A stretch of 55,721 nucleotides of DNA from Nitrospirota bacterium (GCA_003696975.1 RFGT01000122.1:1-55721); one strand, 5' to 3'. Counted from the stretch's first letter, positions 3,404-25,881 are shown. The notes: a model not told the origin generated them from the letters alone. Made by a program: numbers and translations.

Positions 3404-3507
3404 GGCGGCTTTCCTCTGGGCTCGATTGATGGCTTGAAGTGATTGAGAGAGACCTTGGAGAACAGAGGGTGATGGAACAGGATGACATATCTGGGCAGTA
3501 AGAAAGG

Positions 3508-3582
3508 TGGAGCCGGCGAGTGGGATCGAACCACCGACCTGCGGTTTACGAAACCGCTGCTCTGCCTCTGAGCTACGCCGGC
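3508..3582 (-). tRNA. tRNA-Thr (anticodon CGU)
   Basis: The reverse complement reads GCCGGCGTAGCTCAGAGGCAGAGCAGCGGTTTCGTAAACCGCAGGTCGGTGGTTCGATCCCACTCGCCGGCTCCA. It has a 7-bp acceptor stem GCCGGCG/CGCCGGC, a GGTTCGATCC T-arm, an anticodon stem GCGGT/ACCGC with loop TTCGTAA (anticodon CGT), and an encoded CCA. Confidence 0.9.
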
Positions 3583-4017
3583 CCGCGGAAAGGGAGAAAA
3601 AGTTGTTAACGGAGCACGGGTGAAGCGCAACGGCATCTTATTGTCTGCCAACAGGGATGTCAACTCATCCGTCAGATGTAAAAACTAGGATTTCAGTTGA
3701 CGGACAGTGTCAGGAGCTGACAGTGTCAAGGCGGCCCCTCAAGTCAGGCCCACAGTCGCGGGCGGGTATCCAGAATGTTTCGCATCGGCAGGACTCCCGC
3801 CTGACGGGAATGACGCCAAGACCTCTTCCTATTCTGGTTTCTCCTCGTCAAGACGCGTTCACACATCATTAGAACCATCTCGATCATAACGCGTGCCACT
3901 ACCTGAGAAAGAGGCGATTCAGTCACGATAGTCGGCCAACCTTTAAAAATTGTGAGACAGGTTCTCATTTCAGCAATGCGTTGACAGAAATTTAAGCCTT
4001 GGAGTACGGTCGGACGC

Positions 4018-4908
4018 ATGGGATCTCCGCTCTTTGGCTTGGACTCCAGGCGTCAAGTCAATTGGGTTGTTCTCGCGGATCTCATCCGTCTCTCGAACCA
4101 AACCGGCACGTGGCTTCTCATGTTCCCCTCGTTGTGGGCTCTTGTTCTGGCTTCTCGCGGCAAACCTTCCCCATTACTCTTGGCGATCTTTATGTTAGGA
4201 GCCTTTATTATGCGGAGTGCCGGTGTGGTGATGAACGATCTCGCAGACCGGCAAATCGATCGTCAGGTGACACGCACAAAAACCCGTCCCTTGGCTCGAG
4301 GAGCGCTGTCCTTGCGGCAGGCTGTCATTGTACTAAGCGGTCTCTTGGTTTGCGCCGCCGCTTTGGTGAGTCTGCTTGATCCCCTCGTCATCGCATTAAG
4401 CCCAATCGCCTTGGTCCTCGCCGCAATCTACCCTTTCACCAAGCGATTCTTCGCCTTCCCCCAGCTTTTTTTGGGATTGGCATTCGGGTGGGGAACACTT
4501 ATGGCCTGGGCGGCAGTACGCCACACGCTTGAACTCCCGGCTTGGTTGCTTTTTGCTGCCACGGTCTGCTGGGCATTCGCCTATGACACGATTTATGCTC
4601 TCCAAGACCAAGAAGATGATCGCCGAATCGGCGTCAAATCATCCGTCCTAACTCTTGGGCCTTGGGCTTGGATAGCCATTGCCGTCGCTGAGGCCATCAT
4701 GCTGATACTGTTAGCCACTGTGGGTTATAGCCTGGACCTTAACATAGGCCACTTTCTTGTTCTGAGCGGACTGGCGGGATTTCTCTGGTGGCAAATTTTC
4801 TCTCTGCGACAAGGGACCGTTACTTCTTCTCAGGCCTTTTCCCTGTTCCGCCAACATGTGTGGGTCGGAGGAGCCATCTTGGTCGGCCTATGGGTTGGCT
4901 CAGTGTAA
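4018..4908 (+). CDS. ubiA: 4-hydroxybenzoate polyprenyltransferase (UbiA family)
   Basis: Both UbiA signature blocks are present: NDLADRQIDRQVTRTKTRPLARG and YDTIYALQDQEDDRRIGVKSS. The protein is multi-pass hydrophobic. The motifs fit UbiA (ND..DR..D..V.RT..RPL..G) better than haem O synthase CtaB/CyoE. Confidence 0.85.
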   Translation: MGSPLFGLDSRRQVNWVVLADLIRLSNQTGTWLLMFPSLWALVLASRGKPSPLLLAIFMLGAFIMRSAGVVMNDLADRQIDRQVTRTKTRPLARGALSLRQAVIVLSGLLVCAAALVSLLDPLVIALSPIALVLAAIYPFTKRFFAFPQLFLGLAFGWGTLMAWAAVRHTLELPAWLLFAATVCWAFAYDTIYALQDQEDDRRIGVKSSVLTLGPWAWIAIAVAEAIMLILLATVGYSLDLNIGHFLVLSGLAGFLWWQIFSLRQGTVTSSQAFSLFRQHVWVGGAILVGLWVGSV

Positions 4909-4919
4909 AAGGTGCGTTC

Positions 4920-5960
4920 TTATTCTGGCGGAGGAATAGGGTGATCCGGTCTGGGAGCTCGGAGTGTGTCGAGGAACATTGTGAGGGCAATGGCATCGGA
5001 TTCACTGATCCCCAAGTTGGGCATCCTCGTGTGCTTCTTAATGCCTTGCGGATAGAGAATCCAGCGGTAAATCCAGGTCTTGTTTAAACGAAACCCTGCT
5101 CGATCCAAAACGGGCCCTACAACCCCTCCCTCTCCTCCAATGCTATGACATGCATGACATCCATACTTATTGAAATACAGATGCTTACCCTGCCGTGCAA
5201 GGGTCGCCCGTTCTTCCTCGGAAAACGATGAGAAATCAGGAGGAGAAATTTGAGTCCGTTTGGGGCGCTTGGTAAAATTTTCAAGCGCTTGCTTGGCAGC
5301 CTCTAACTTGGCTACAGCTCGTTCATAGGTTTCCTCTTCAGGCAAAACAACTTCTTCGTACTCTTCATCGTCGTCGAAATTTTCCTCGTCCGCTTCTTCA
5401 GCCCTGGCAGCCTCTTCTTCCTCCAGTTTGGCGAGAGCCGCTTCCATCGCCTGTTTGGCTTGATCGTGTTCCTGCTGTGCCGCAGCCAGTTCAGCCTCGA
5501 GTTGCTTGCGCCGACCTTCAACATCGTAGGTGAGCGACCCACCATGCAGTCTGCGTACATACCCGACGATTGACCACAGTTCTTTTTCCGACAAGGTATA
5601 CTTAAACGTGGGCATCGTCGCGACGGCAAAATAGTCTTCATCGTCTATGACTGCCGGGTCCGTGGTATCTCGCATGTCTCGGGAGATCGTGTTGAAAATC
5701 TCTTCATCGGAGAAGGTGGACATAGTCGACGATTCCGAAAGGTCCCGAGGGCGCGGGTCCGGCATATGTTCCCAATTGTAGCCTTCTCCTTGCCGTCCAT
5801 TTTCGCCATGGCAGTGCATGCAGTAATGTTCATAGAGCTTTCGGCCCCTTGCGGTCATTTCATCCTCAAACAGCACACACCCATTGATCCCCAGAAGCCC
5901 CACGACCAGAGCTCCCACCAGTCCGACCATAGCCCGCTTGAGACCGCTCCATTCCTTCAT
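4920..5960 (-). CDS. membrane-anchored dihaem c-type cytochrome with an acidic coiled-coil linker
   Basis: It has an N-terminal TM segment (AMVGLVGALVVGLLGI) and two CxxCH motifs (CMHCH, CHACH) in separate class-I-like domains. The domains are joined by a roughly 90-aa Ala/Glu-rich helix and acidic stretch (EEEEAARAEEADEENFDDDEEYEE). It is the last gene of the minus-strand operon. Confidence 0.85.
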   Translation of the reverse strand: MKEWSGLKRAMVGLVGALVVGLLGINGCVLFEDEMTARGRKLYEHYCMHCHGENGRQGEGYNWEHMPDPRPRDLSESSTMSTFSDEEIFNTISRDMRDTTDPAVIDDEDYFAVATMPTFKYTLSEKELWSIVGYVRRLHGGSLTYDVEGRRKQLEAELAAAQQEHDQAKQAMEAALAKLEEEEAARAEEADEENFDDDEEYEEVVLPEEETYERAVAKLEAAKQALENFTKRPKRTQISPPDFSSFSEEERATLARQGKHLYFNKYGCHACHSIGGEGGVVGPVLDRAGFRLNKTWIYRWILYPQGIKKHTRMPNLGISESDAIALTMFLDTLRAPRPDHPIPPPE

Positions 5961-5964
5961 GGCC

Positions 5965-6828
5965 TCAACCCCGCCGAAGTTTTCGAATCAAGAAAAATTC
6001 AAACGCTGCCGCAATGGCAATGCCTAACACGACATACCCATAAATGGAGTTGTCCGGTGGAGGCTCAGCCCGAATGTACCACCATGATGAGACGGCTTTC
6101 TGCGACCCTTTCTCTTTGACACTTCCATCAGGGAGAAGCTGGCCATCCCAAAAGGCAAAAGCCACGTTGGTCCATTTTCCCGGTATGATCTGGACGTCAT
6201 GTTCATCCGAGGTTTGCAAAGGTCGTGAAAATATCACGCGCCACGTACCATCCCTCCAAGCTCCCGTCGCGGAGACGTCTTGGTGTTTTTGGGCGTGAAG
6301 GGTTTTGAACCCCTTGGCATTCATATCCACCGCCGAACCTTGACTGTTTTTCCAATACCAAATATTGACCTCTCCGCCTTCGACCTGCAGCATTTCCTGA
6401 GCATGGGCAAAGTGAGACTTTTTATCCCCCACCATAAACTCCAACGCGGCTGCGTCAGCGTCATCTTCCGTGGGATCTTGATATTCCAGTAAGATGGCCA
6501 ATTCCTGACCATTGTGCAGGCCGCGTACCTTTACAGATTTGACCGTCACTTCTTGAATACGTTGAGGCCAATGCACTTGCGGGGCCAATTGAAACTCCGA
6601 TGCGGGAACGGTATCCCATGTAGGAGCAAATGGATCATCGGTAGGAAGCGGGCCATCGGATAAATACAACCGGACCGCAACACTTGCCTCTTTCTTCTCA
6701 GGGTCGGGATCACCCCCCCATGCGGGGAGACCGTGCCCCGCTACGATGGCTGCGGTTATCAAGATCCCCAGGAGTCGTCGGTGGACCATATATCCCTCAG
6801 TTTTCCTCATCGGTATCGCACTTCCCAC
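5965..6828 (-). CDS. EB_dh (ethylbenzene dehydrogenase gamma / NxrC-like) haem-b-binding domain protein with C-terminal TM anchor
   Basis: The body reads like the EB_dh family of type II DMSO-reductase gamma subunits (WDTVPASEF ... VKVRGLHNGQELAILLEYQD ... NIWYWKN ... GTWRVIFSRPL ... VAFAFWDG). It has a signal-like N-terminus (start may be the ATG at 6789, MVHRRLLGILITAAIVAG). A C-terminal hydrophobic helix follows (IYGYVVLGIAIAAAFEFFLI). Confidence 0.7.
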   Translation of the reverse strand: MGSAIPMRKTEGYMVHRRLLGILITAAIVAGHGLPAWGGDPDPEKKEASVAVRLYLSDGPLPTDDPFAPTWDTVPASEFQLAPQVHWPQRIQEVTVKSVKVRGLHNGQELAILLEYQDPTEDDADAAALEFMVGDKKSHFAHAQEMLQVEGGEVNIWYWKNSQGSAVDMNAKGFKTLHAQKHQDVSATGAWRDGTWRVIFSRPLQTSDEHDVQIIPGKWTNVAFAFWDGQLLPDGSVKEKGSQKAVSSWWYIRAEPPPDNSIYGYVVLGIAIAAAFEFFLIRKLRRG

Positions 6829-6833
6829 CCGCT

Positions 6834-7565
6834 TTATTCCTCTTCTTCCCAGGTTCGCGGAGATTGTCCAGCCCCGTCATATTCCCCCATGATGATTTTC
6901 CAAATCCATTCATCCGAGAGTTCGAATTCCCAACGAGGCATGGCAGACCTCCAAGGCATGGCTTCCACAGGGAGTCCGACACCACCCTTTTTGATTCGCC
7001 AGAAGAGATAGGATTCTTGGAGCTGCGCAATAGTTCCTGGATCCCTGAAGTTGGCCGGCGGAGGGTTAAACCCGACTGATGCAGGGCCTTTTCCATCAAA
7101 GTTTGCCCCGTGGCAGGGAGAACAAAAGGCGGCATAGAGCCCTTTTCCCACCGCGATGTTCTCCGGAGTCTTCGGGTAGGGATTGGATAATCCCACAAAC
7201 TCTCCCGGCGGCGCGGGATGAATAGTACGATTCTCCACAGGAGGCTGGTCACTCGGAACCAATCTCGTATAGGTCTGCCAACCCACGAGCAGAGGAAACA
7301 GAATGAGGACCAACATTCGAGCGGTTCTAGCCATTCCCACTTGGCCCTCTCCCGTCAAAAATCGCGTGATGGGCCCCATGAACGCATTGAGGGATTCGCC
7401 GCTTATGGTGTAAAAAATCAAAATCGCGCTTAACGTCAGTGCGAGATAAAGATAGATCAGACTCGCTGGGAGAGGCGCGGTAAACAAAGGCAGAACAAAC
7501 TTTAAAACGACATACATCCCCACCAATATTACCGCCGCTGTCGCGAGTGGTCCTTTCATTGGCAC
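6834..7565 (-). CDS. monohaem c-type cytochrome with three N-terminal TM helices
   Basis: Three hydrophobic segments are followed by a soluble domain with one CxxCH (CSPCH). The gene sits 5 nt upstream of the next gene. Confidence 0.8.
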   Translation of the reverse strand: MPMKGPLATAAVILVGMYVVLKFVLPLFTAPLPASLIYLYLALTLSAILIFYTISGESLNAFMGPITRFLTGEGQVGMARTARMLVLILFPLLVGWQTYTRLVPSDQPPVENRTIHPAPPGEFVGLSNPYPKTPENIAVGKGLYAAFCSPCHGANFDGKGPASVGFNPPPANFRDPGTIAQLQESYLFWRIKKGGVGLPVEAMPWRSAMPRWEFELSDEWIWKIIMGEYDGAGQSPRTWEEEE

Positions 7566-7637
7566 GCTCCTCTGTTCGCAAGCTTGAGTGACAATCTGAC
7601 AGCTCGTTTGCTACTTAGGTGCCCGTCGCTTGACTCC

Positions 7638-8243
7638 CTACCGGTCGTGAGAGACCACAGCCACTTGGACCTCATCTTCTTGTGTGCCCATCTTGAGAAC
7701 GTCTTCCACCTTAATACTAATAGGGGCTCCACTCATCTTTTGGAGAAACGCGATAACGGAATAAATCTCCTGTTTCGTGAGCCCAATTGGATCCTTGTTA
7801 ATGTATGGCATGCGGGCCGGATATTCCTTCGGGGGTCCATTGTGCCGGAAATCGAGATAAATATAGGCTTGAGGTTGAGTGAGACTTTCATAGATAAACT
7901 CGGGGGTCAACTTGGCACCAATCCCTTTCAAGTCAGGACATCGAGCGGACTCACTCGGGCCAATGGAATGGCAGAGGGCACACTGCCCCTTACTGAAAAA
8001 GATCTTCTGTCCAATAGCCGCCAAATCGTCCGGTGTTTTAACCTTGGTGATGTCAAACGTCTCAATGGCTGGAGGAAGCGAAGGCATCTGGGGAACTCCT
8101 AAGGCAATTAAGCTGAACGTCCCCAATACAATCACCACAAATCCCACGACTCGGACGAACATCGCACGGATGAACAACAGAATAGCGATTCCACATCCTA
8201 CGACAATCAAACCAATCAATTGGAGCAAGGCGACTTCGCTCAT
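7638..8243 (-). CDS. monohaem c-type cytochrome with two N-terminal TM helices
   Basis: Two hydrophobic segments (LLQLIGLIVVGCGIAILLFI, VVGFVVIVLGTFSLIALGV) are followed by CALCH. Confidence 0.8.
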   Translation of the reverse strand: MSEVALLQLIGLIVVGCGIAILLFIRAMFVRVVGFVVIVLGTFSLIALGVPQMPSLPPAIETFDITKVKTPDDLAAIGQKIFFSKGQCALCHSIGPSESARCPDLKGIGAKLTPEFIYESLTQPQAYIYLDFRHNGPPKEYPARMPYINKDPIGLTKQEIYSVIAFLQKMSGAPISIKVEDVLKMGTQEDEVQVAVVSHDR

Positions 8244-8320
8244 GTATTCAGATTTCCTCTCACGGTATATACTGCCTGTTTCGCAGGCTTATCGTATCTC
8301 CCACCAGTTTGTGCCTTAGG

Positions 8321-10264
8321 CTACCGTTCATGGACACGAGGAGCTCCCCCAGCCATGGCAGGAGCCATCCCTCCGGGGACATCAACAGGTTCTGAGCGGG
8401 AAATCGGTTTTCCCGGCTCATGCTTCCCTTTGTCACCCATTGTGGCTACCCAGAAAATGAAGGCCACCAACAAGCAAAAGACAAACGTGTTGAGCGACAT
8501 AAACGCGGCGGCATATCCCAGCGCCGGAGAGTAGGCATATTCCGAGGTGTCGCGCATCACACCGTAGATATGCCAGTGGACGCGGGAAGAGGATCGGGCA
8601 TAGCCCATTAGGGACATTAACAGGATCACCATCACAGCGTTCGACACCAAGCAATACCCTGCTCGCACGGGCATTTGGCCCCAGATCATCTCCGCGGTCG
8701 TTTTGGCACTTTTCATCAGCAGTGCGGTCAACGGAGTAAAGGTCAACATAATGAACAAGACAATGAGCACCTGGGCCACCGAGAAGTAATTGATGCGGAT
8801 GATCGCGGGAACAAAATAGCCCCACACGCCAAGGATGATGACCGCAATGCCAGCCAGAATCAGCAGAGCCCCCATGACGGCTTTGGCGAGTCGCGCCCAC
8901 GTGGCGGTCTCTTGCTTGCCTGCACGCCAATACATAATAAAACTCATGAATGTGACCAAGATCATCAGGTTGGACACTGTCATCTTGGCGGACATTACAC
9001 CAAATACCCCAAGCAGGGGATGGTGAGTGCCTCCCATTTTCCTTGCCTCTTCAAGACTTGCCACGAGGGAATGGGGAGTCATCCACACGCCCAGGCAAAC
9101 CATCAGCACAATGAGCATGGCAAGAATGGGCTTTCGGTATTGGTGCTCAGCGCCGGGGATTCGGTGTGTGATCCCCATCCAGAAATAATAGTTGGCCCCT
9201 AGGAACAATACGCCGATCAGCATAGCCTGGAGAATGAAGAGCCACGCCAGGAATCCACCCATGAGGGTAATCCCCATCTGCTGATTGTATTGATAGATTT
9301 CGCGCATCAGCCAGTAGCCTGCGAAGGGCAGCGGGAGCATCCCAAAGACCCCAATAAAATTCCCGACATAGCCCATCCAGTCATAGTGCTCTCGCTCTTC
9401 GCGAGACCCCGCCAAGAGGTACCGAATACCCGCATAGGCTCCGCAAATGAATCCCCCTAATACCACATTCGCGATCAAGCGATGAATATTGACCGGCCAC
9501 CAGGTAGGATTCCAGGTGGCGGCCCAGGCCTTTTCGATCGCGGTTCCTTCCGCGATTACCACGGGGCTCGCCTGAAAGGTAGCCCATGCGTTGGGGACGA
9601 TCATGATGAAAAAGGCGAAAATATTAAGCAAGAATCCGAGAACGAGGTGGAACCCCTTTTTGTTCCCCTGCATGGCATCCCATCCGTACCAGTACAGATA
9701 CAGGGTGGCCGTTTCCAACAAGAACAAGATGCAATACACGATAAATGACGGGAAAAAGATGTCGGTGAGATAGGCCATGAGCTTGGGATAAAACCCGATC
9801 AACAAAAACAGCAAGATCCCCCCAAACAATGCTGTCGTGGCATAGGCCGACGTCAACAATTTGGTAAATTCTTTCGCGAGCTTGTCATATCGAGGATCTT
9901 TGGTTTTCCAACCTACCAACTCACATACCCAGGCAAAAATGGGAACTCCCAGCACAAATCCAGCCAACAAGAGATGTTGCTGCGCGATGACCCAGATAAT
10001 ATTGCGACTTCCCAAGCCCGGAATATCGCGATATTCGACACTCATTGCCTTTTCCGCTCCGCTCTGCGCCATGGCAACCGCGGAAAGCACAAAGAGAGCG
10101 CCCACCACTATCACAAGCCCGAGAATGAGGCTGCCTCTCCCTGATGGCATCCAGTGTCTCCAGCTAGTCCTTGCATTGTCCTGGTCCATATCGCCTTCCC
10201 TCATAGGCATGGAACCGTTAATGCTCATGATTGCCATGACTATGGTCATCATGAGAGTGGGCAT
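8321..10264 (-). CDS. cytochrome bd-like oxidase, CydA (subunit I) homologue, extended form (paralogue A)
   Basis: CydA-like landmarks are present: AQQHLLLAGF (TM1 His), FLLETATLYLYWYGW (TM3 Glu), NIHRLIANV (TM5 His). I count about 13-14 hydrophobic segments by eye, against 9 in canonical CydA. The Q-loop looks collapsed. The start is uncertain: 10264 overlaps the upstream gene, and alternative ATGs exist, e.g. 10210. Confidence 0.8.
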   Translation of the reverse strand: MPTLMMTIVMAIMSINGSMPMREGDMDQDNARTSWRHWMPSGRGSLILGLVIVVGALFVLSAVAMAQSGAEKAMSVEYRDIPGLGSRNIIWVIAQQHLLLAGFVLGVPIFAWVCELVGWKTKDPRYDKLAKEFTKLLTSAYATTALFGGILLFLLIGFYPKLMAYLTDIFFPSFIVYCILFLLETATLYLYWYGWDAMQGNKKGFHLVLGFLLNIFAFFIMIVPNAWATFQASPVVIAEGTAIEKAWAATWNPTWWPVNIHRLIANVVLGGFICGAYAGIRYLLAGSREEREHYDWMGYVGNFIGVFGMLPLPFAGYWLMREIYQYNQQMGITLMGGFLAWLFILQAMLIGVLFLGANYYFWMGITHRIPGAEHQYRKPILAMLIVLMVCLGVWMTPHSLVASLEEARKMGGTHHPLLGVFGVMSAKMTVSNLMILVTFMSFIMYWRAGKQETATWARLAKAVMGALLILAGIAVIILGVWGYFVPAIIRINYFSVAQVLIVLFIMLTFTPLTALLMKSAKTTAEMIWGQMPVRAGYCLVSNAVMVILLMSLMGYARSSSRVHWHIYGVMRDTSEYAYSPALGYAAAFMSLNTFVFCLLVAFIFWVATMGDKGKHEPGKPISRSEPVDVPGGMAPAMAGGAPRVHER

Positions 10265-11159
10265 CTGGCGTGGCAGACATCGATGTCTGCTGCGCTGCTC
10301 CTTCCACCGCGGAGGAGCGAGATGATTGGGCTGATTCAGCTTTGCTTCTTCCTCCTGATGAGGAGGCCTGCTCCTTCGTCAACTCTTCTAAGGTTAGCTC
10401 AGCTTGCGCGATGACTTGTTCTGCCTTGGTAATCACTTCCTTGGGATTGACCGGTTTCTCTTTTTTGGCCACATGGACAAATTCGTAGTCTTCATGGGGA
10501 TGAGGAGTGCTGACAGGCAAGAACCCCCAAAATAGCAAGATCAAGACTGTCCCCACCCCTACAAACGCTGTCAACATAAGCGGTTGATCCGAAGGAATTC
10601 TGAGCAGATCCCAGCGATAGACGACCTCTTGTAATGGCCCTTCTACTGGCTGTCCAGCACGAACGTGACGGTTGGCCAGAAGCCCCAACCCATACAACCA
10701 TCCCATTAACATAAGGAGAAATACCACAGCCGCGACACTCCCCCAGAGGGTCAGCTCCAAGGCAATTTGTTCGGCAATAGGGAGAGCCGGTATCACACTT
10801 TCTTTAAGAAACGCGACAAAGCTCTTGGCCACCGATTCAGCGGTATGAGCTACCCCCCCTATCACAAGATACATAACCGGGAGATAGACAACACTCCACA
10901 GGGCCCATTGCCACCAGAGGGTTACCCCAAGTTGCGCGGGAGGTTCGATTCTCAATCGCTCAAGAAATACGGTCCTGGCGCATAATCCCAATGCCCATAT
11001 ATCGATAGGAATTGACACGAGCAACAGAATTGCCAATCCCAATCCTTCCCACGGATGCAGACCGGCAGCTAATAGAAGCAACGCAATGGCCAGCTTGAGT
11101 GGAAATCCTGTCCAGAAGGTCGGCCAGACAATTAACAAGCCTAGCTTGATGTTTCCCAT
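10218..11159 (-). CDS. polytopic membrane protein of unknown function with His-rich C-terminal tail
   Basis: About 6 hydrophobic segments are followed by a helical/disordered soluble tail ending in PDAHSHDDHSHGNHEH. I recognise no family. It lies between the cytochrome b gene and bd-like paralogue A, with a 13-nt gap on the upstream side. Confidence 0.6.
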   Translation of the reverse strand: MGNIKLGLLIVWPTFWTGFPLKLAIALLLLAAGLHPWEGLGLAILLLVSIPIDIWALGLCARTVFLERLRIEPPAQLGVTLWWQWALWSVVYLPVMYLVIGGVAHTAESVAKSFVAFLKESVIPALPIAEQIALELTLWGSVAAVVFLLMLMGWLYGLGLLANRHVRAGQPVEGPLQEVVYRWDLLRIPSDQPLMLTAFVGVGTVLILLFWGFLPVSTPHPHEDYEFVHVAKKEKPVNPKEVITKAEQVIAQAELTLEELTKEQASSSGGRSKAESAQSSRSSAVEGAAQQTSMSATPDAHSHDDHSHGNHEH

Positions 11160-11172
11160 CAGCCCGTTTTGA

Positions 11173-12285
11173 TTACTCCAGAAATTCGCGATTGATAATC
11201 GCCGACACGGTGAACACCAAAATACCTGTCATCACCACAATCCAGCCAATCAACGCCACCGGCCGTTTAAAAATATTGCGTTCAGGACTCCGGTCAATAA
11301 AGGGAAGCGCAGCCAGAAACGCCAAAAATGCTCCGGGGATGGCCACAGCACCAAGAAATTGTCCAAATTCTCCGGAAAAAACTTTCAGGCGCAACATTTG
11401 GAACAAAAACAAAAAGTACCATTCCGGTTCAGGATGATAATCCCCGGGATCCGGTGTAGCTTCTTCAAGCAACGTCACCGGCTCAATAAATGCCAGCGTG
11501 CAAACAATAAGAAATACCGTGGCCATTGCCACAATATCTTTCCAGACTTGCCGCGGAAAAAAATAATCCGTCTTTGCCTTTAACTCTTCCGGCGTCCCTC
11601 GAAACGGACCGGCTGGACCAGCTTTTCTGAATAAAAACAGATGCAATCCCGCTAGTCCCATCAAGGCTGCGGGAAGAATCATGACATGAATTACGAAAAA
11701 CCGGCTCAACGTCATTTGTCCTGGGGTCGGCCCCCCTTTCAAAAACCGGCTCAAGAAATCCCCAATGAGCGGGGTCTTGTCCATAATCTCCACACCAACC
11801 ACGGTTGCCCAGTAGGCGCGTTGATCCCATGGAAGCAAGTACCCGGTAAACCCAAAGGCCATCACTAATCCAAATAAGGCTAACCCCACTAGCCAAATCA
11901 GCTCCCGCGGTTTCTTATAGGCACCCCAGAGAAAGACTTGAGACATATGGGCATACACCATCACCACCATGGCTGAAGAGCCCCAAAAATGGTAGCTCAA
12001 TAGAAACCACCCGTAATCCACTTCATGAATAATGTATTGCGTGCTGGCATAGGCATGATCTGTACTGGGCACATAGTAAAACATCAAGAGAATGCCGGTA
12101 ATCGCCTGCATAATAAAGATAAAAAGCAGACACGAGCCAAATACATACGCCCAACGCGACCCGCCAGGAACGGGTTCATTCAACATCTTGGCTTGAATTG
12201 TCTTCAAGCCGACCCGTTCATCGACAAAGTCGACAACTTTTTCGAAGAGGCTTTTTTCAGCGATGTCAGCCTTGCCATTCATCAC
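11173..12285 (-). CDS. cytochrome b (fused b6-like N-terminal part plus subunit-IV-like C-terminal part)
   Basis: Two bis-His pairs are present on the B and D helices (HFWGSSAMVVMVYAH; HVMILPAALMGLAGLH). The PEWY Qo motif is present (PEPEWYFLF), as is a typical N-terminal region (WAYVFGSCLLFIFIMQAITGILLMFYYVPS). Confidence 0.9.
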   Translation of the reverse strand: MMNGKADIAEKSLFEKVVDFVDERVGLKTIQAKMLNEPVPGGSRWAYVFGSCLLFIFIMQAITGILLMFYYVPSTDHAYASTQYIIHEVDYGWFLLSYHFWGSSAMVVMVYAHMSQVFLWGAYKKPRELIWLVGLALFGLVMAFGFTGYLLPWDQRAYWATVVGVEIMDKTPLIGDFLSRFLKGGPTPGQMTLSRFFVIHVMILPAALMGLAGLHLFLFRKAGPAGPFRGTPEELKAKTDYFFPRQVWKDIVAMATVFLIVCTLAFIEPVTLLEEATPDPGDYHPEPEWYFLFLFQMLRLKVFSGEFGQFLGAVAIPGAFLAFLAALPFIDRSPERNIFKRPVALIGWIVVMTGILVFTVSAIINREFLE

Positions 12286-12313
12286 GATTGCTCAGTCGCC
12301 CTTAAAATTTCTC

Positions 12314-13258
12314 CTACAAGAGCCGAATCTGATCCTTCACCCCTGCCTTGTATTCAATGTCGATCACCTTGATCTCACCTGCCGCATCAACTTTCATGGG
12401 CAGCACATCCAAAGGCCGGGGAGCTGGCCCATCCAGCACTCTTCCTGCCGCGTCATAAATACTCAAGTGGCAGGGGCACAAAAATACTCCATCAGGAAAA
12501 TTCTTGGTTCGGCGCCACTTGTAGCCACATCCCAGATGGGGACACTTCCCTGAATATCCTATATACGGAGCAGTAGCCTTGTTGACCCAGATGACATTGC
12601 CCTTTTCATCGTAAAATTTTTTATCTTTCCCTCCATAGACCGCTTGTTGGATCTCAGGCGTGGCCTTGACTACCCAAACATTTTTCTCAATCTTCTGTTC
12701 CGGCATGAAGGCTTCTTTCAATCCCCGAATAAATTTAAACTGATACCCAATTCCCTCTTTTTTGATCTTTTGAACATTGCCAACAGAAAACCAAGAATTG
12801 TCGAACGGCCGATACATTGGCTTCATCAGATACTTCAGGACCGGATACACCAAAGGAAGGGCAATCAAGGCGCCAATAGCCTGAGTCATATTGGCAAAAA
12901 AAGTTCGCCGGGGAACATCACGTTCCAATTTGGGGAACGGCACTAAAACTTCGCCAGGCTCCACGTGCAATCGATCTTCCAAATGCGCAATCTCCACATC
13001 TTTGATGGTGACATATTCGTCTCGCTTCAGAACCGGAAACTGCTGGAAATCAGCAGCGGTACACCGCAAGAGGATTTCTTCTTCGTTGACAACTTGCTGA
13101 ATTTCCCTGACAGGAACCTGTCGCTCATATCCTTGACCATTGGCCTCCTTTACCACCACATGACTGACTTCATGCGACAAGGGATCGACAATAACCTTAG
13201 AGATACGGCCGACTTCTCTGTCAGCGCACCTGGCTTTCGCGGTAATTTTGGGCTGCAT
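12314..13258 (-). CDS. Rieske [2Fe-2S] protein with N-terminal PRC-barrel-like extension
   Basis: Rieske boxes CPHLGC and CPCH are present. A twin-arginine-like anchor PRRTFFANMTQAIGALIALPLV sits at about residue 116. It is preceded by about 110 aa resembling a PRC barrel (REVGRISKVIVDPLSHEVSHVVVKE ... QVPVREIQ). An in-frame TTG at 12928 would give a conventional short Rieske protein. Confidence 0.85.
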   Translation of the reverse strand: MQPKITAKARCADREVGRISKVIVDPLSHEVSHVVVKEANGQGYERQVPVREIQQVVNEEEILLRCTAADFQQFPVLKRDEYVTIKDVEIAHLEDRLHVEPGEVLVPFPKLERDVPRRTFFANMTQAIGALIALPLVYPVLKYLMKPMYRPFDNSWFSVGNVQKIKKEGIGYQFKFIRGLKEAFMPEQKIEKNVWVVKATPEIQQAVYGGKDKKFYDEKGNVIWVNKATAPYIGYSGKCPHLGCGYKWRRTKNFPDGVFLCPCHLSIYDAAGRVLDGPAPRPLDVLPMKVDAAGEIKVIDIEYKAGVKDQIRLL

Positions 13259-13299
13259 ATGACAAGCACCACTCCATCAAGTCGGGCAAGTCCAGCGAA

Positions 13300-14124
13300 T
13301 TATTGCATTTTAATGGGACGGGGTGTATTGACTGACGTATCTTTTAGCGTTGAAAGAAAAGCCACCAAGGCGTCAATTTCTTCCGGGAACATGAGGTCCT
13401 TATATTTATTAGGCATCTTGCCTTTTTTGTATGCCTTTTCGAAGCCCTCAGCCATCCAACTCTTAGGATTAAGGATCTTCTGGCGGATCTGTTCCGGCGT
13501 CATGAGATTACCGATATTGTCCAAAGCAGGCCCTCGTTTTTTCCCACCCTGCCCAAACAACTTATGGCAGTTGTAACACTCCTGAAGTTCCCATTGTTCG
13601 CGTCCTAAGGCAACCAGATCACCGGATGTCGCAGACGACGTGGGACTACTGGCCTCAGTTTCTACTTTTACTTTGGCCACAACTTTTGCCCCTCCGCCTA
13701 AGGCAGCGAGTTGTTTGGCAATGGCTTGAGCCTTTTCGTCGAGCGCTTTCGCGCGCGCCAACAGTTCTTCCACTTTACCCTGCTTGGTTCGCGCCCGCCT
13801 GGCTTTCAGCAATTTCTCGATTTTCCCTTTTTCGACTTCTGGGTCATATTGCGGCAACCACGTGGCTCCGGCAATATAGACGCCCGAAATAATCACGTAA
13901 AATAGGATAAGCCCTACTACAGCCTTTGAGCCTTCCAGTCGCTTCATGGACGGGGCGTCCAAGAGAATAAAGACAAACGCTCCAAGCATGGCGTATATGA
14001 AAAACATGACCTGGAAGACTGGCGGGAAATGCGTGAGTTTCGCCACGACGACCAGCACAATTCCCACCAGAACCCCAAAGACCAGTTTCTTAACCACGAC
14101 TCTGGCAAATCCGTTCTGAACCAT
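13300..14124 (-). CDS. membrane-anchored monohaem c-type cytochrome with coiled-coil spacer
   Basis: The longest ORF (to 14226) overlaps the upstream gene. An ATG at 14124 (MVQNGFARV) lies 20 nt after the upstream stop. The protein has three hydrophobic segments, a Lys/Ala-rich helix, then CYNCH. Confidence 0.8.
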   Translation of the reverse strand: MVQNGFARVVVKKLVFGVLVGIVLVVVAKLTHFPPVFQVMFFIYAMLGAFVFILLDAPSMKRLEGSKAVVGLILFYVIISGVYIAGATWLPQYDPEVEKGKIEKLLKARRARTKQGKVEELLARAKALDEKAQAIAKQLAALGGGAKVVAKVKVETEASSPTSSATSGDLVALGREQWELQECYNCHKLFGQGGKKRGPALDNIGNLMTPEQIRQKILNPKSWMAEGFEKAYKKGKMPNKYKDLMFPEEIDALVAFLSTLKDTSVNTPRPIKMQ

Positions 14125-14143
14125 ACGTGCTTTTCTCCAACAC

Positions 14144-15895
14144 TTACTCCGCTCCGGCCGGAACAGGAGCCCCTGGTGCGACAGGCGATTTCGCCTCCGA
14201 CGCCCGCAGGGTGATGAGAATGGCAAAACTCACAACAATATAAAAAATCAGCGTCAATCCCGTAATCCACCACGCGGAGTAGGCCAACGTAGGCGTATAC
14301 GATTCAGCCGTGAAGTCCGGCAATAGATTGTACACGTGATAATATTTCCTCGTTAATGATCGTACTGCTCCCATCAATCCCATCGTCCAAATAGCACTGA
14401 ATGCCAGAAACACCAGCACGAACTGAGAAGCAAAATCGATCTTCCCCCAAATAATCGTGCCCCGGCGAATAGCGCGATTGTATAAGATATAGTTGACAAC
14501 CGTGAGAAATACCAGCGTAAATGCCGCCGCATTCTTGGCTGGCATGAGCGCGAGCTCGCTTGCCCACGAAGGCAACTCCAACTCCTCCGTGGCCAAAGCC
14601 TGGGTAGCCACAAATCCATGGGGGGTCATCCAGATGGCATTAGCCACCACAATCATGAAGAAGCCCACCTTGATCATGGTAAATGACGAAACAGTAAAGT
14701 TTCTTAACCCAGGTAGCTTGCTCAGCACCGGAGGAAGAATAACAAGTAAAGCCAACACGATCAGCGATTGCCACTCCGGAGGCGGAAACACTTTCCATGT
14801 GAACCCCATGATCGCCGGCATTCCAATAACCGCCACTACGACAAGTCCGGAAATACGCACCCGTTCGACTCCCTCAATCCGCTTCATGCTCAGCCAGATA
14901 TAGTAATTACTGGCCAAAAAGATCAGCCCCACCATTGCCCCTTGCATTTCAAAGAACATGGACAGTTGATCGGCCATCATGTAGGGACAGATGGAGGCGT
15001 CATAGTCACACAATTCATACGCCAGCAAATATCCCATGAATGGGAGCAAGAGCAAGGCCCCAACTCCAATGAGATTTCCCACGAATCCCATCCAATCGTA
15101 ATAGGAACGCTCTTCGTCTGATTTGGCCCCCATGTACATGTAGGCGGCAATCAGTCCGGCAATGAATCCTCCAAACGTTACGTTACCCACCAAGCGGTGG
15201 AGGTTGAGCGGCATCCAACTATAGTTGGCCATCTTGTCCCACAGTCCAGCCGACTGGATGAACTCGACCAGCGAAATCCCTTCTGCGGATTTCGCTGGTG
15301 TATTCATAAACGCCGTCGGCCCGTCAATGACGAACAACGTCAGAGTTCCTATGAGATTTAACAATACACCAAGGGCGATATGACGAGCTTTCTTCTCCCC
15401 TTTCAAGGAATCCCAGGTATAGAAATAGGTGTACAGCACAATCGTCTCGGCAATAAACAAAACCGGATAAATCAAGGCAAACACTAAGAAGAAATGCTTG
15501 ATGAGCCAAGTGGTAAAATCGGGATACGTTGCCAGTAAGACAAAGATGAACAACCCGCCCGTCAACGCCGTCATGCTGTAGAGGATGACCGTGACTTTTG
15601 TCACTTCTTTGGCTAATCGATCATATTTGGGATCACGATTCCGATAGCCCAACCACTCAGACACAACCGCAAAAATCGGAGCGCCCAAGATGAACGCCGC
15701 AAACAAGATGTGAAGCTGCGCCACAATCCATACCCCTGTCCGATTCCCGGTATACGGAAATTCGCTTGGTGGGGGTTCCGGAACCTGAGCATACACTGCC
15801 CCTATGCTTCCGAGCACAAGGAGCCCCATCATTATTCCTAGCAGGAGGCTACGCGTCATTGTTCTCAAGGGTTGTGGCCCTCCTTCTCTTCTCAC
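14144..15895 (-). CDS. cytochrome bd-like oxidase, CydA homologue (paralogue B)
   Basis: It carries the same landmarks as paralogue A (VAQLHILFAAF, FIAETIVLYTYFYTW, NLHRLVGNV, WMTPH). It lacks the extra His clusters of A. The start is uncertain (GTG 15895, TTG about 15868 or ATG 15859; a GGAGG lies between them). Confidence 0.8.
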   Translation of the reverse strand: MRREGGPQPLRTMTRSLLLGIMMGLLVLGSIGAVYAQVPEPPPSEFPYTGNRTGVWIVAQLHILFAAFILGAPIFAVVSEWLGYRNRDPKYDRLAKEVTKVTVILYSMTALTGGLFIFVLLATYPDFTTWLIKHFFLVFALIYPVLFIAETIVLYTYFYTWDSLKGEKKARHIALGVLLNLIGTLTLFVIDGPTAFMNTPAKSAEGISLVEFIQSAGLWDKMANYSWMPLNLHRLVGNVTFGGFIAGLIAAYMYMGAKSDEERSYYDWMGFVGNLIGVGALLLLPFMGYLLAYELCDYDASICPYMMADQLSMFFEMQGAMVGLIFLASNYYIWLSMKRIEGVERVRISGLVVVAVIGMPAIMGFTWKVFPPPEWQSLIVLALLVILPPVLSKLPGLRNFTVSSFTMIKVGFFMIVVANAIWMTPHGFVATQALATEELELPSWASELALMPAKNAAAFTLVFLTVVNYILYNRAIRRGTIIWGKIDFASQFVLVFLAFSAIWTMGLMGAVRSLTRKYYHVYNLLPDFTAESYTPTLAYSAWWITGLTLIFYIVVSFAILITLRASEAKSPVAPGAPVPAGAE

Positions 15896-15912
15896 ATGAC
15901 CTAGATTGAGAC

Positions 15913-16392
15913 TTAATCGTTGTCAGGAACCCATGCTTTTTTCTCGGGATCGTATTTCAAGCCCTTCAAGCCAAAGGTCGCTTCATAGGCAATCACTTTC
16001 CAGCGTTCATCTTCCGAAAGCTTTGTTTTCCAAGGCTTCATTTTCGTGCCTTTCACCCCTTCGGAAACACGCCAAAACCATTGAGAATCTGAAAAGAGTT
16101 TCATGTGCTCCGTTTGGCGGAAATCTCGGGCGCCCGCCTTCACAGGTTTTCCATCTTTTCCATGACAGCTTGCACAATTGACGTCGATATTCTGGGCCCC
16201 CGTGAAGATGGCTCTCCCCTCTTCTATGATTTTGGGATTATTCCAATAATCCGGCGGCATATGTTTGTCCGCATACTCTGGTGGCGGCGGTGGCGGCGGT
16301 GGCGGCGGGCCAGCCTCACCGCAAGCCGAAAGGGCGAACCCAACAAGGCCAAGTGCAACCATCATGTAGAGACGTCTTCCCCTGTTTCCCAT
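15913..16392 (-). CDS. lipoprotein-type monohaem c-type cytochrome with poly-proline tether
   Basis: It has a signal peptide with lipobox (GFALSAC), a run of ten Pro, then CASCH. A GGAAGGAG Shine-Dalgarno lies about 13 nt upstream of the ATG. It is the first gene of the respiratory operon. Confidence 0.8.
   Translation of the reverse strand: MGNRGRRLYMMVALGLVGFALSACGEAGPPPPPPPPPPEYADKHMPPDYWNNPKIIEEGRAIFTGAQNIDVNCASCHGKDGKPVKAGARDFRQTEHMKLFSDSQWFWRVSEGVKGTKMKPWKTKLSEDERWKVIAYEATFGLKGLKYDPEKKAWVPDND
16280..16306 (-). repeat. perfect 3 x 9-nt tandem repeat (GGTGGCGGC)3 encoding the Pro10 linker
   Basis: Read directly: ggtggcggc ggtggcggc ggtggcggc. It lies inside CDS 15913-16392. Confidence 0.9.
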
Positions 16393-16513
16393 AGCGTATC
16401 TTCACTCCTTCCTAGCTTTTTAGGGATTATGACCCTCTTTCAAACAAACCACCTGTCTCTCTCCAGACGCACATCTTGTTCCAACAGCAACAGACAAATG
16501 CGATTCCGACAAT

Positions 16514-17113
16514 TCACGATTTCGCTTTCGTTTTCCCTTTTCCTCCTTTGCCCCCCTTTCCACCCTTGCTCTTGCGTTTGAGCATCATCCTGAAGAGACC
16601 GAGCGCAACTGCCACGCTTCCGCCGATCACTCCATACAACGCCCATCCTCTACTTGGAAGCGGTGCACATTTGCCACCAAGTTGCACAGCCAGAACACGT
16701 TCTGTTGTCTTGTCATGGGGATCGAAATCCACCCGTGCATGCTTTTCATATTCCAAGGCGCGAATGAGTAAAGGATCCCCTTGATTCTCATCATGTAAGT
16801 GGAGCACCACTTTAAAGCGGCCATCCGTATCGGTAACGTCACTCCCTCCAACGGACGCTCTGGTATCTTTGACGATGACTTTAAGTCCCTCAAGGCCTTG
16901 CCCATCTTCCCCGCACACCCGGCCCGTTACCGTAAAGCGATGGTCCACTTCATGAAGCGCCCTCGCTTGGGTAATAGGCAAACTTGCCAGAATGGCGCAA
17001 ATGAAAATGCGGGTGACTGTGGTCGTTCCGGGATATCCCAATGGTCTGCCACGCTCCCTGATCCACCCATGGTTTCCACATTGTTCCTGGAGAGCCCAGT
17101 GGCACCACCTCAA
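16514..17113 (-). CDS. hypothetical exported protein: carboxypeptidase-regulatory-like beta-sandwich, C-terminal TM anchor and Lys/Gly-rich tail
   Basis: FTVTGRVCGEDGQGLEGLKVIVKD ... TDTDGRFKVVL resembles CarboxypepD_reg-type domains. A C-terminal helix (LYGVIGGSVAVALGLF) is followed by KRKSKGGKGGKGGKGKTKAKS. The start is uncertain (a TTG at 17041 would expose a signal peptide). Confidence 0.5.
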   Translation of the reverse strand: MRWCHWALQEQCGNHGWIRERGRPLGYPGTTTVTRIFICAILASLPITQARALHEVDHRFTVTGRVCGEDGQGLEGLKVIVKDTRASVGGSDVTDTDGRFKVVLHLHDENQGDPLLIRALEYEKHARVDFDPHDKTTERVLAVQLGGKCAPLPSRGWALYGVIGGSVAVALGLFRMMLKRKSKGGKGGKGGKGKTKAKS

Positions 17114-17265
17114 TCCTTACGCAACCTCAGCTCATGAGAAAAGGCAGGCAGTTGCAGGCAAAAGGTCCGTGACTTCTAGCATACCGAGATTTCCTCTGTC
17201 AATAATAAGACCAGCGTCATTCGTGCACGAAATGCGTGTCGATGCGACAAACGGCAACACAAAAG

Positions 17266-17631
17266 TTAGGTCTTCGGCCGGTAGATTTTTTGCGTTTCTT
17301 CCTGTTTTTTCCGCTGCCATGCTTCCCAAGACCTTCCAAATGCCATGTCTTCACCGGAAAATATAATGGCGGTAATCTGGTGATAGGGAACACGCCGGCG
17401 GTCAGGAGTACTGGCGAGCATAATGTCAAGATAAGGACAGGGGGAATGCGGTTGGCGATTGTACACATATCCCACGAGAGATTCGCCAGTTTTCAATTTG
17501 AGAGTCACGTCACCTCGATAATCAAACGCCCGCTCCACGATCCCCGCCAACTCCGCAGGGGTCTTGGGATGCACCACTGTGCCGTGCCAGCTCGCTGGTT
17601 CCGTCTCCAGCGAAAAGTGTTTCGACATCAC
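17266..17631 (-). CDS. hypothetical protein (121 aa), no recognised family
   Basis: The ORF is co-directional and follows hpnH after a 57-nt gap. Its composition is protein-like. No motif is recognised. Confidence 0.45.
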   Translation of the reverse strand: MMSKHFSLETEPASWHGTVVHPKTPAELAGIVERAFDYRGDVTLKLKTGESLVGYVYNRQPHSPCPYLDIMLASTPDRRRVPYHQITAIIFSGEDMAFGRSWEAWQRKKQEETQKIYRPKT

Positions 17632-17688
17632 TCTCCTCTTACGAGAGACGAAAAGGTCCCATCCCTTCGTTCAAGCAATGCCGCTTGC

Positions 17689-18699
17689 TTAGGTAGGGAA
17701 CAAGGTGGCACGTACCGTCCCCGTAAAACCTGACCAGGAGCTGAACGTTTCCTCAACGGCGGAGGCTTCGTATCCACAATGCACCATGCAATCGGCACAT
17801 TTTGGATTGCGTCCGGTTCCATAGCGGTCCCAATTCGTTTCCTCCATTAGTTCCCGGAATGTTTCAGCATATCCGTCTTGCAAGAGGTAACAGGGCCTCT
17901 GCCATCCGAAGATGTTATATGTGGGATTTCCCCATGGCGTACACTGATAGTCCCGTTTGCCCATCAGAAACTCCAAAAACAGCGGAGACTGATTGAATCG
18001 CCATGATCGTTTTCGATTGGCAAGCAACCGAGCAAATAATTCCTGTGTCCGATGCCGTGTCAAAAATCCATGCTGATCTGGCGCCTTTTCATAACTGTAG
18101 CCTGGAGAAATCATCATCCCTTCGACGCCGAGTTGCATCATTTCATCAAAAAATTCCCGCAACCGTTGAGGGTTGGCACCGTTAAAGACCGTGGTATTGG
18201 TCGTCACCCTGAATCCTCGTGCCAGTGCCGTTCGAATCGCCCGCACGGCAATATCGTAGACCCCCTCGCGACAGACGGCCAGATCATGCTCTTCCCGCAG
18301 GCCATCCATATGAATGCTGAACGTGAGATACTTGGAAGGGGTATATTCGTGGATCTTGCGCTCAAGCAACAATCCATTGGTGCAAAGATAGACATACTTC
18401 TTGCGTGCCACGAGTCCTCGCACAATTTCCGGCATCTCCGGATGGATGAGAGGCTCGCCCCCAGGAATACTGACGATGGGCGCTCCGCATTCTTCTGCAG
18501 CAGCCCAACATTGTTCCGGAGTCAATCGACGATCGAGAATATGCTCCGGATATTGAATTTTGCCGCATCCCGCGCAGGCGAGATTGCAGCGGAAAAGAGG
18601 CTCCAACATCAATACCAGGGGATAGCGCGTTTCTCCTTTAAGCTTTTTGGTGAGCACGTACCTCGCTACCGTTGCCATCTGAGACAAAGGCACAGCCAT
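17689..18699 (-). CDS. hpnH: radical SAM adenosylhopane synthase (hopanoid side-chain biosynthesis)
   Basis: The radical SAM cluster motif CNLACAGCGK is present, with an HpnH-like N-terminus (ARYVLTKKLKGETRYPLVLMLEPLFRCNLAC). The ATG at 18699 is preceded by GAAGGAG at 7-nt spacing. shc and hpnG lie in the same block. Confidence 0.85.
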   Translation of the reverse strand: MAVPLSQMATVARYVLTKKLKGETRYPLVLMLEPLFRCNLACAGCGKIQYPEHILDRRLTPEQCWAAAEECGAPIVSIPGGEPLIHPEMPEIVRGLVARKKYVYLCTNGLLLERKIHEYTPSKYLTFSIHMDGLREEHDLAVCREGVYDIAVRAIRTALARGFRVTTNTTVFNGANPQRLREFFDEMMQLGVEGMMISPGYSYEKAPDQHGFLTRHRTQELFARLLANRKRSWRFNQSPLFLEFLMGKRDYQCTPWGNPTYNIFGWQRPCYLLQDGYAETFRELMEETNWDRYGTGRNPKCADCMVHCGYEASAVEETFSSWSGFTGTVRATLFPT

Positions 18700-18754
18700 A
18701 TAAAAGCTCCTTCTCTTGCTGAGCGGCACACATGCGGTTTACGACAAAAGCTCG

Positions 18755-18830
18755 TGGAGGCGCCGGGCGGGTTCGAACCGCCGCATCGCAGTTTTGCAGA
18801 CTGCTCCCTTAGCCACTTGGGTACGGCGCC
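18755..18830 (-). tRNA. tRNA-Cys (anticodon GCA)
   Basis: The reverse complement reads GGCGCCGTACCCAAGTGGCTAAGGGAGCAGTCTGCAAAACTGCGATGCGGCGGTTCGAACCCGCCCGGCGCCTCCA. It has an acceptor stem GGCGCCG/CGGCGCC, an anticodon stem GCAGT/ACTGC with loop CTGCAAA, a GGTTCGAACC T-arm, and an encoded CCA. Confidence 0.9.
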
Positions 18831-18901
18831 CCGGGAGGGATTATAACGAGCCTGCTTTCACCAAAACAAGCCACACTGTGAGTTGCGGGGAGATTGTTGT
18901 C

Positions 18902-20065: not shown

Positions 20066-20075
20066 AAGCGTTGTG

Positions 20076-21974: not shown

Positions 21975-22184
21975 GATTGCGAATTCCTTTCATGGAACAA
22001 ATATGCAGCCCCGACACCTCTTCGCTTTTCCATCGTAACCGACGTTGATTTCGAGAGGCAGTCTCCCACACCAACACCACGCTGTCAAGGTGAAAAGGCC
22101 CCCTTCCCTCGGGTCCTCTCACCTCGAAAAGGCCCTTGTGACCGTTGTATGCAGACCTCAGGGGACCAATGCATGCTGACATGG

Positions 22185-22823: not shown

Positions 22824-22914
22824 GGCACCCACCTCTTCCACCGTTGGTTAGGCTATTAGGACGTTTAGGACCTTTCGTCCTCGACGTGCCCCTTTTCCCT
22901 AGTCTTTCCAGCAA

Positions 22915-23358: not shown

Positions 23359-23458
23359 ACCTTAGCCTATTGTCTGCATTCCTACCAGACTTCTCCCTAC
23401 CAGATAGGTTCACGTACCCGCCGTTCAGGTTCACCACACTTCCCTTAACGGACGCTCC

Positions 23459-25857: not shown

Positions 25858-25881
25858 GCGGTCCGCCGTATCGGGTCACAT

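Follow-up and report, generated by a model that had tools for sequence, protein, structure and literature searches.

We analysed a 55,721-nucleotide (nt) stretch of DNA from Nitrospirota bacterium (GCA_003696975.1 RFGT01000122.1), which we call the window and whose coordinates are used throughout. Our subject is a cluster of eleven respiratory open reading frames (ORFs), all co-directional on the minus strand at positions 4920-16392 and numbered g1 to g11 in transcription order (Table 1). We interpret this region, with moderate confidence, as the orthologue of a conserved respiratory cluster of Nitrospirales that is built from two modules and in which g7, a homologue of the cytochrome bd protein CydA, would act as a cytochrome c oxidase. 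When the longest ORFs are used, the gaps from g1 to g11 are 17, -83, 41, 28, 13, -47, 77, 72, 5 and 4 nt. Both overlaps are due to upstream in-frame start codons. Starting g3 at the internal ATG at 14124, a plausible start, removes the first overlap and leaves a gap of 19 nt. The longest ORF of g7 spans 8321-10264 and encodes 647 amino acids (aa); starting it at the internal ATG at 10204 or 10189 leaves a gap of 13-28 nt and agrees with homologues of 618-634 aa. After these two corrections the eleven genes are spaced by 4-77 nt, as an earlier note on this DNA had reported.

Table 1. Genes of the respiratory cluster in transcription order, with window coordinates and the matches on which each assignment is based.
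Gene	Product	Position	Strand	Evidence
g1	Monohaem cytochrome c; signal peptide and lipobox-like LSAC	15913..16392	-	Pfam Cytochrome_CBB3 5.5e-10; CxxCH at aa 73
g2	CydA-like 'bd-like B', bd-like_1 / OR-N1 type, 583 aa	14144..15895	-	Pfam Cyt_bd_oxida_I 9.7e-17
g3	Anchored monohaem cytochrome c with three transmembrane helices	13300..14124	-	Pfam Cytochrom_C 1.7e-11; CYNCH; three hydrophobic helices
g4	Rieske [2Fe-2S] protein with N-terminal extension	12314..13258	-	Pfam Rieske 3.9e-07; TIGR01416 2e-17
g5	Fused b6/subunit-IV-type cytochrome b	11173..12285	-	Pfam Cytochrome_B 3e-50; Cytochrom_B_C 9.5e-09
g6	Conserved membrane protein with five transmembrane helices, 313 aa	10218..11159	-	No family match in Pfam or NCBIfam
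g7	CydA-like 'bd-like A', bd-like_2 / Nide0901-like / OR-N2 type, putative terminal oxidase	8321..10204	-	Pfam Cyt_bd_oxida_I 2.6e-19
g8	Membrane-anchored monohaem cytochrome c	7638..8243	-	Pfam Cytochrom_C 1.8e-08
g9	Monohaem cytochrome c with three transmembrane helices	6834..7565	-	Pfam Cytochrome_CBB3 1.1e-07; CSPCH
g10	EB_dh haem-b protein; signal peptide, C-terminal transmembrane helix (alt_NxrC_1 type)	5965..6828	-	Pfam EB_dh 1.1e-22
g11	Dihaem cytochrome c with acidic coiled-coil linker	4920..5960	-	Pfam Cytochrome_CBB3 3.1e-16, two stretches; CMHCH and CHACH

The domain content described in the earlier note was largely borne out by profile searches. Pfam recovered c-type cytochrome domains in five cluster proteins, which together contain six CxxCH motifs (two in g11 and a single one in each of g1, g3, g8 and g9), as well as the Rieske, cytochrome b and EB_dh assignments. 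The description of g4 as a 'PRC-Rieske' protein stood for its Rieske part; a PRC barrel at its N-terminus is at most tentative, the match having an E value of 0.024 and 15.1 bits, below the cut-off of 21.2. The two genes that the note had reported as missing were likewise not seen: we found no cydB-like gene among the cluster ORFs and the other window ORFs of at least 200 aa that were scanned, nor any haem-copper oxidase gene (COX1 homologue) in this set.

We then compared g2 and g7 with canonical CydA proteins. Both exceeded the gathering score of Pfam family Cyt_bd_oxida_I (PF01654), with 61.1 bits for g2 and 69.6 bits for g7 against 26.2, which agrees with the note's identification of two CydA-like proteins and, on homology, assigns them to the cytochrome bd superfamily. 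The two are 34% identical over their full length. The g7 match covers only positions 8-241 of the 418 profile positions, and phmmer alignments to solved CydA proteins stop near residue 216, so that the Q-loop and the C-terminal helices of canonical CydA are without alignment; g7 thus differs from canonical cytochrome bd, which carries a Q-loop with quinol-binding residues between transmembrane (TM) helices TM6 and TM7. Within the aligned part, His97 of g7 and His62 of g2 align with His21 of G. thermodenitrificans CydA (His19 in E. coli), and His261 of g7, with which His233 of g2 aligns in the paralogue alignment, aligns with His186. Glu184 of g7 aligns with G. thermodenitrificans Glu108, whose equivalent is kept in both paralogues. 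Five histidines of g7 (His97, His206, His261, His415 and His565) do not vary within its clade, even at 45% identity, and 80 closer relatives also conserve His293 (99%), His398, His414 and His563. The invariant histidines of g2 orthologues are His62, His172, His233 and His520; g2 keeps equivalents of four of the five core g7 histidines, and the His414/415 pair has no counterpart in it. A crude hydropathy scan gave at least 12 TM helices in each protein, and an AlphaFold 2 model of g7 (predicted local distance difference test score, pLDDT, 65; predicted template-modelling score, pTM, 0.70) has about 14-15 long helices. The ten best fold matches of this model in the Protein Data Bank (PDB) were all CydA chains (probability 1.00, E values of 1e-6 to 1e-4); their TM-scores were low, as a partial match would give.

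These properties correspond to those of the OR-N family of the cytochrome bd superfamily, in which the quinol site is absent (Murali, Gennis and Hemp 2021, bioRxiv 10.1101/2021.01.16.426971). OR-N1 and OR-N2 proteins are described as having 14 TM helices, and both types occur in one operon with up to 40% similarity (bioRxiv 10.1101/2021.01.16.426971). The window likewise has about 14 TM helices in the CydA-like protein and two CydA paralogues in one operon of a Nitrospirota genome, with cytochrome c, Rieske/cytochrome b and EB_dh genes, whose products are putative alternative electron donors, on their flanks. We assign the putative labels OR-N1 to g2 and OR-N2 to g7 from gene order and statements in the literature rather than from the authors' own subfamily hidden Markov models. 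A 2025 survey of Nitrospirales concluded that a NIDE0901-like OR-N2 protein together with an OR-N1-type CydA is likely to be the terminal oxidase in most genomes (PMC12342949). A copper site has also been proposed for Nide0901, according to later papers that refer to Lücker et al. 2010 as the primary source.

The earlier note had considered this locus the best candidate in the window for an undescribed system, a view that does not survive comparison with the literature, in which the cluster is conserved, described, known to be transcribed and classified by its OR-N1 and OR-N2 proteins. Its composition, and the idea that its products form a supercomplex, have already been published. In N. moscoviensis the region comprises CIII_1, bd-like_1, bd-like_2 (a putative complex IV), alt_NxrC_1 and c-type cytochromes, and is highly transcribed and co-expressed under nitrite oxidation; a III-IV supercomplex was proposed, to which soluble nitrite oxidoreductase (NXR) might dock via alt_NxrC_1 (Mundinger 2019, PMC6606698). 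The product of alt_nxrC_1 has one signal peptide, one TM helix and a mass of 30.5 kDa, two cytochrome c genes lie between the oxidase gene and alt_nxrC_1, and the protein is treated as an 'alternative' NxrC rather than a core NXR subunit (PMC6606698). The order g7-g8-g9-g10 fits this layout exactly, and we therefore equate g7 with the bd-like_2, Nide0901-type protein and g2 with bd-like_1. We take the tags Nide0896 and Nide0901 to denote the counterparts of g2 and g7, respectively; the look-up confirmed one of the N. defluvii orthologues, that of g2, as CBK40660.1.

To place the window among its relatives, we compared its proteins and gene order with those of other genomes. The cluster proteins are 75-90% identical to Nitrospirales proteins, and the 647-aa g7 product shares 85-89% identity with proteins encoded in Nitrospira and Nitrospirales genomes and metagenome-assembled genomes. 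For a profile scan of one genome per GTDB species we used seven aligned sequences of the g7 clade as the seed and obtained 80 loci, nearly all of them from Nitrospirales; an alignment of 17 sequences drawn from the two paralogue clades was too diverse for this use. Gene order across the 80 loci was then determined by tblastn and blastp with the eleven window proteins. The order g1 to g11, on which the note's proposal of a single gene set depended, was colinear in all 48 loci that contain the eleven genes, which is every locus long enough, including that of Candidatus (Ca.) Nitrospira defluvii (FP929003.1, L031). The flanks are also syntenic, with HpnH upstream and a convergent UbiA-family gene downstream, and a separate 4.7-Mb genome has the identical eleven-gene order and flanking genes. 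The arrangement is far beyond chance.

Outside Nitrospirales the cluster takes another form. In Manganitrophaceae/Troglogloeales (L072, 2220-17566; L076, L077 and L079) the genes g7-g8-g9-g10(-g11) occur in tandem in two to three copies, with a g1-like cytochrome c gene directly upstream of g7 and none of the genes g2-g6 between them. Because these organisms carry g1 and g7-g11 alone, the cluster can be divided into two modules, one comprising g1 and g7-g11 and the other g2-g6. These observations bear on a proposal that was the earlier note's main reading and a speculation of Mundinger 2019: a single obligate III-IV supercomplex made up of the eleven products, with OR-N1 and OR-N2 paired as a CydAA'-type heterodimer that replaces CydAB. 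Such an assembly would suit the tight packing and shared direction of the genes, the invariance of the eleven-gene order across Nitrospirales and the high-level co-expression in N. moscoviensis (Mundinger 2019, PMC6606698), and the paralogues, at 34% identity, have both kept the interface-proximal equivalent of His19. On the other hand, four genes separate g2 from g7, each of which has c-cytochrome genes of its own beside it, the Manganitrophaceae multiply the g7 module without g2, Rieske or cytochrome b genes between g1 and g7, and OR-N2 often occurs without another CydA-like protein (Murali et al. 2021, bioRxiv 10.1101/2021.01.16.426971). The standalone g7 module makes an obligate OR-N1/OR-N2 heterodimer less well supported. 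We consider the single supercomplex rather unlikely, and the comparison of loci favours a modular build over one indivisible unit of eleven subunits.

The c-type cytochromes of the g7 module point to how g7 might receive electrons. Three distant g7 homologues, P0122 (807 aa), P0124 (889 aa) and P0132 (784 aa), carry at their C-termini one or two fused cytochrome c domains that are homologues of g8; residues 654-783 of P0122 are 51% identical to g8 (E 5e-43). Given these fusions, g8 is probably a subunit of g7 and the c-haem through which electrons enter it. g9 accompanies g7-g8 in all loci, including those of Manganitrophaceae. g10 matched EB_dh (PF09459) with 81.7 bits against a cut-off of 33.3, and matched TIGR03477 (9.3e-31) with 106.8 bits, under the cut-off of 169.85. 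Its best solved relatives are Kuenenia NxrC (7b04_C, 1.3e-13) and EbdC (2ivf_C, 1.9e-11), and its C-terminal TM helix lies at aa 262-280. Gamma subunits of type II dimethyl sulfoxide reductases are encoded with catalytic alpha and beta subunits; g10 departs from this pattern, as neither nxrA nor nxrB was found in the window. Its sequence identifies g10 as a putative membrane-anchored alternative NxrC of the alt_NxrC_1 type, an identity that the earlier note had overlooked. This resemblance to NxrC makes a periplasmic nitrite oxidoreductase the likely electron source, and the cluster would therefore not be self-contained. The earlier note's first proposal, a self-contained quinol-cytochrome c-O2 supercomplex, thus agrees with published ideas as regards the supercomplex but not in being self-contained.

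The second module includes the quinone-reactive part of the cluster. The g4 translation contains the Rieske boxes CPHLGC and CPCH, and that of g5 contains H-x13-H and H-x14-H pairs, which supply the four haem-ligand histidines, as well as a PEWY Qo motif. With these motifs intact, g4 and g5 are predicted to form a b6-type Rieske/cytochrome b complex. No homologue of cytochrome c1 or f is present in the cluster, and g3, an anchored monohaem cytochrome c, is encoded directly upstream of the Rieske gene; it is the likely candidate for the c-subunit of this complex. Across loci, g5 is the most conserved cluster protein (77-92% identity) and g6 the least (33-59%), yet g6 occupies the same position in all 48 full loci. 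A PV(S/T)TPHPHE motif is conserved in g6 after the last TM helix, followed by CC in lineage I/II, including N. defluvii, and the region with TPHPHE, or TPHPHE and CC, is a possible metal site. A C-terminal His-rich tail, HSHDDHSHGNHEH, was found only in the window and in locus L003.

Based on these data, we propose a model in which the two modules have separate tasks. In the module of g1 and g7-g11, g10 and the c-cytochromes g8, g9, g11 and g1 would accept electrons from a periplasmic nitrite oxidoreductase and pass them to g7, the OR-N2 CydA homologue, which would reduce O2 at a haem site that descends from that of cytochrome bd. If g7 receives its electrons from c-cytochromes and reduces O2, it is a cytochrome c oxidase and not a quinol oxidase; that cytochrome c is the donor is suggested by the match of g7 to only the N-terminal half of CydA and by the fusion of g8 to g7 relatives. 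In the module of g2-g6, the b6-type complex of g4 and g5, whose c-subunit is likely to be g3, would connect cytochrome c and the quinone pool, and the OR-N1 paralogue g2 and g6 would be accessory subunits. During nitrite oxidation this module would run in reverse, driven by the proton-motive force (pmf), and supply low-potential reductant, and it would run forward when H2, formate or storage compounds support growth. We regard this two-module reading, with g7 as a cytochrome c oxidase, as the most plausible account of the cluster.

The earlier note had offered, as a second possibility, a branched chain, and in its strict form this would be a bifurcating machine that obligatorily splits electrons at cytochrome c potential, sending some downhill to O2 via the bd-like proteins and others uphill to quinone via Rieske/cytochrome b. 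Oxidase-like and quinone-reactive modules do adjoin in one conserved cluster, and a comparable branched or bifurcating scheme was proposed for the related TO_2 cluster of Manganitrophus (Yu et al. 2021). The obligate coupling is harder to place: the two modules are found separately in relatives, the ion-pumping Mrp-like subunits that the Manganitrophus proposal needs have no counterpart in the cluster, and ordinary pmf-driven reverse flow through a bc complex accounts for the same genes without coupling. We consider obligate bifurcation very improbable.

Several observations weigh against the assignment of g7 as an NXR-fed cytochrome c oxidase within this cluster. The second proton-channel glutamate position (Glu99 in E. 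coli, Glu101 in G. thermodenitrificans) is a conserved tyrosine in both g2 and g7, and no alignment to the paralogues was obtained for Met393 and Glu445, the haem ligands in the C-terminal part of canonical CydA. The g7 model is of moderate quality, as its pLDDT indicates, and the fold search found no OR-N-type structure in the PDB copy to April 2026. Literature searches for biochemical, complexome and cryo-electron microscopy or other structural work on the Nitrospira bd-like complex found nothing. Because nxrAB lie outside the window, the link to NXR draws only on homology and the literature. Scans of 3300-18000 for promoter and terminator consensus sequences gave counts close to the shuffled expectation and no convincing operon boundaries, and so lend no support to a single transcript. 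Finally, relatives of the bd-like proteins occur in the NXR clusters of strictly anaerobic anammox bacteria, where they were proposed to be partners of quinone rather than O2 (Lücker et al. 2013).

It is conceivable that the bd-like proteins are not oxidases but haem-containing membrane modules that exchange electrons between periplasmic carriers and quinone, much like alternative complex III, in support of reverse electron transport, while canonical CydAB or cbb3, where present, reduces O2. Lücker et al. 2013 raised this idea for a bd-like protein encoded in the NXR cluster that is also found in anaerobic anammox bacteria, and it would accommodate the tyrosine in the proton channel; about half of Nitrospirales genomes have additional canonical oxidases (PMC12342949). 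Several features fit it poorly. The region of the canonical Q-loop does not align, and its residues are reported missing in this bd-like type (Murali et al. 2021; Lücker et al. 2013); a Rieske/cytochrome b complex dedicated to reaction with quinone is already part of the cluster; the histidine that corresponds to His19, a ligand of the O2-binding haem, is retained without exception; and some cultured Nitrospirales have the OR-N type as their only oxidase (PMC12342949). On balance, we think a non-oxidase role unlikely and retain the reading of g7 as a cytochrome c oxidase.

Among nitrite oxidisers, Nitrospira are the most widespread. Since most of them lack a haem-copper oxidase, as the literature reports for most Nitrospirales, the identity of their O2-reducing enzyme is a genuine question, and this cluster is the leading candidate. 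If an OR-N CydA homologue were proven to be a cytochrome c-dependent O2 reductase, it would represent a new enzyme class in aerobic respiration, and the same proof would account for the coupling between nitrite oxidation and energy conservation. A more far-reaching version would unite the OR-N2 module, OR-N1 and Rieske/cytochrome b in one NXR-docking assembly that obligatorily splits electrons between O2 and quinone and has a non-canonical His-rich, possibly copper, site. We give this version little credence; if true, it would be a fourth kind of terminal oxidase within a confurcating or bifurcating machine. The window itself contributes a further orthologue of a locus found in virtually all Nitrospirales genomes. 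It brings no evidence of a new kind to this question, nor does it make the question more testable than the many genomes already available; its value lies in annotation, not in discovery. What our analysis adds is minor: the g7-g8 fusion, the modularity seen in Manganitrophaceae, the motif and lineage-specific tail of g6, the closeness of g10 to Kuenenia NxrC and the finding that OR-N-type structures are absent from the PDB copy searched.

The rest of the window contains isoprenoid/hopanoid, Mla transporter and housekeeping genes. On the plus strand, at 4018-4908, is the UbiA-family gene, which is the convergent neighbour in all loci that extend far enough and scored 274.2 bits for TIGR01474 against a cut-off of 275.45. 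We rejected its identification as haem O synthase, which would have had a bearing on the cofactor of the oxidase, as it scores as a 4-hydroxybenzoate polyprenyltransferase. It may be linked to the unusual benzoquinones or plastoquinones reported for nitrifiers (PMC12324825). At 16514-17113 on the minus strand, 121 nt upstream of g1, there is a 199-aa ORF with a weak CarboxypepD_reg match, which most lineage I/II loci have in the same place (34-48% identity) and which was undetected in the nearest marine relatives; this ORF might represent the unit's twelfth gene. Further upstream, at 17689-28059 on the same strand, lie HpnH, IspG/GcpE, DXS and squalene-hopene cyclase genes together with Mla-type transporter genes, and the synteny of HpnH with the respiratory cluster holds across Nitrospirales. 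A 503-aa ORF at 37859-39370 (minus strand) contains two ThyX (Thy1) profile stretches and is about twice the usual length of ThyX; it may be a tandem or fused form. Near the end of the window, a 593-aa ORF with a TTG start (53934-55715, minus strand) had no Pfam match at E 1e-5.

Compared with the clusters of N. moscoviensis and Ca. N. defluvii, that of the window is alike in gene content, gene order and flanks and in the signal peptide and C-terminal TM helix of its alt_NxrC. Its proteins are 40-87% identical to those of N. defluvii (L031), depending on the protein, and it belongs to a different, marine or sponge-type lineage of Nitrospirales, with best genome matches of 87-89% for g7. The g6 proteins of lineage I/II have an insertion of about 30 residues and the CC motif, whereas window g6 lacks both and has the lineage-specific His-rich tail. 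The TO_1 cluster of Ca. Manganitrophus, which contains a bd-like protein of clade I, two cytochromes c and a periplasmic cytochrome b (Yu et al. 2021), has the same g7-g8-g9-g10 order, and its g7 is 58-64% identical to that of the window. The difference lies in the setting: in Manganitrophaceae the module stands alone and in tandem, directly preceded by the g1-like cytochrome c, whereas in Nitrospirales g2-g6 lie between g1 and g7. g10 shares the EB_dh domain with NxrC and EbdC, its best solved matches (7b04_C and 2ivf_C), but has a C-terminal membrane anchor and no adjacent nxrAB. The likeness to canonical CydAB(X) (E. coli, 6rx4; G. thermodenitrificans, 5doq) is confined to the first six or so helices, in which the positions of two haem-ligand histidines and one channel glutamate are kept in the cluster paralogues. 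In contrast to the canonical enzyme, the window has no counterpart of CydB or CydX, the quinol site is unaligned and there are about five extra helices; c-cytochromes are associated, and in some relatives fused, and Rieske/cytochrome b genes adjoin. The closest correspondence is with the OR-N1 and OR-N2 subfamilies, with which the window proteins share the N-terminal four-helix core of CydA with its His19 equivalent, an unaligned Q-loop, about 14 TM helices and the presence in one operon of two paralogues less than 40% identical, and from which nothing in the window differs in kind.

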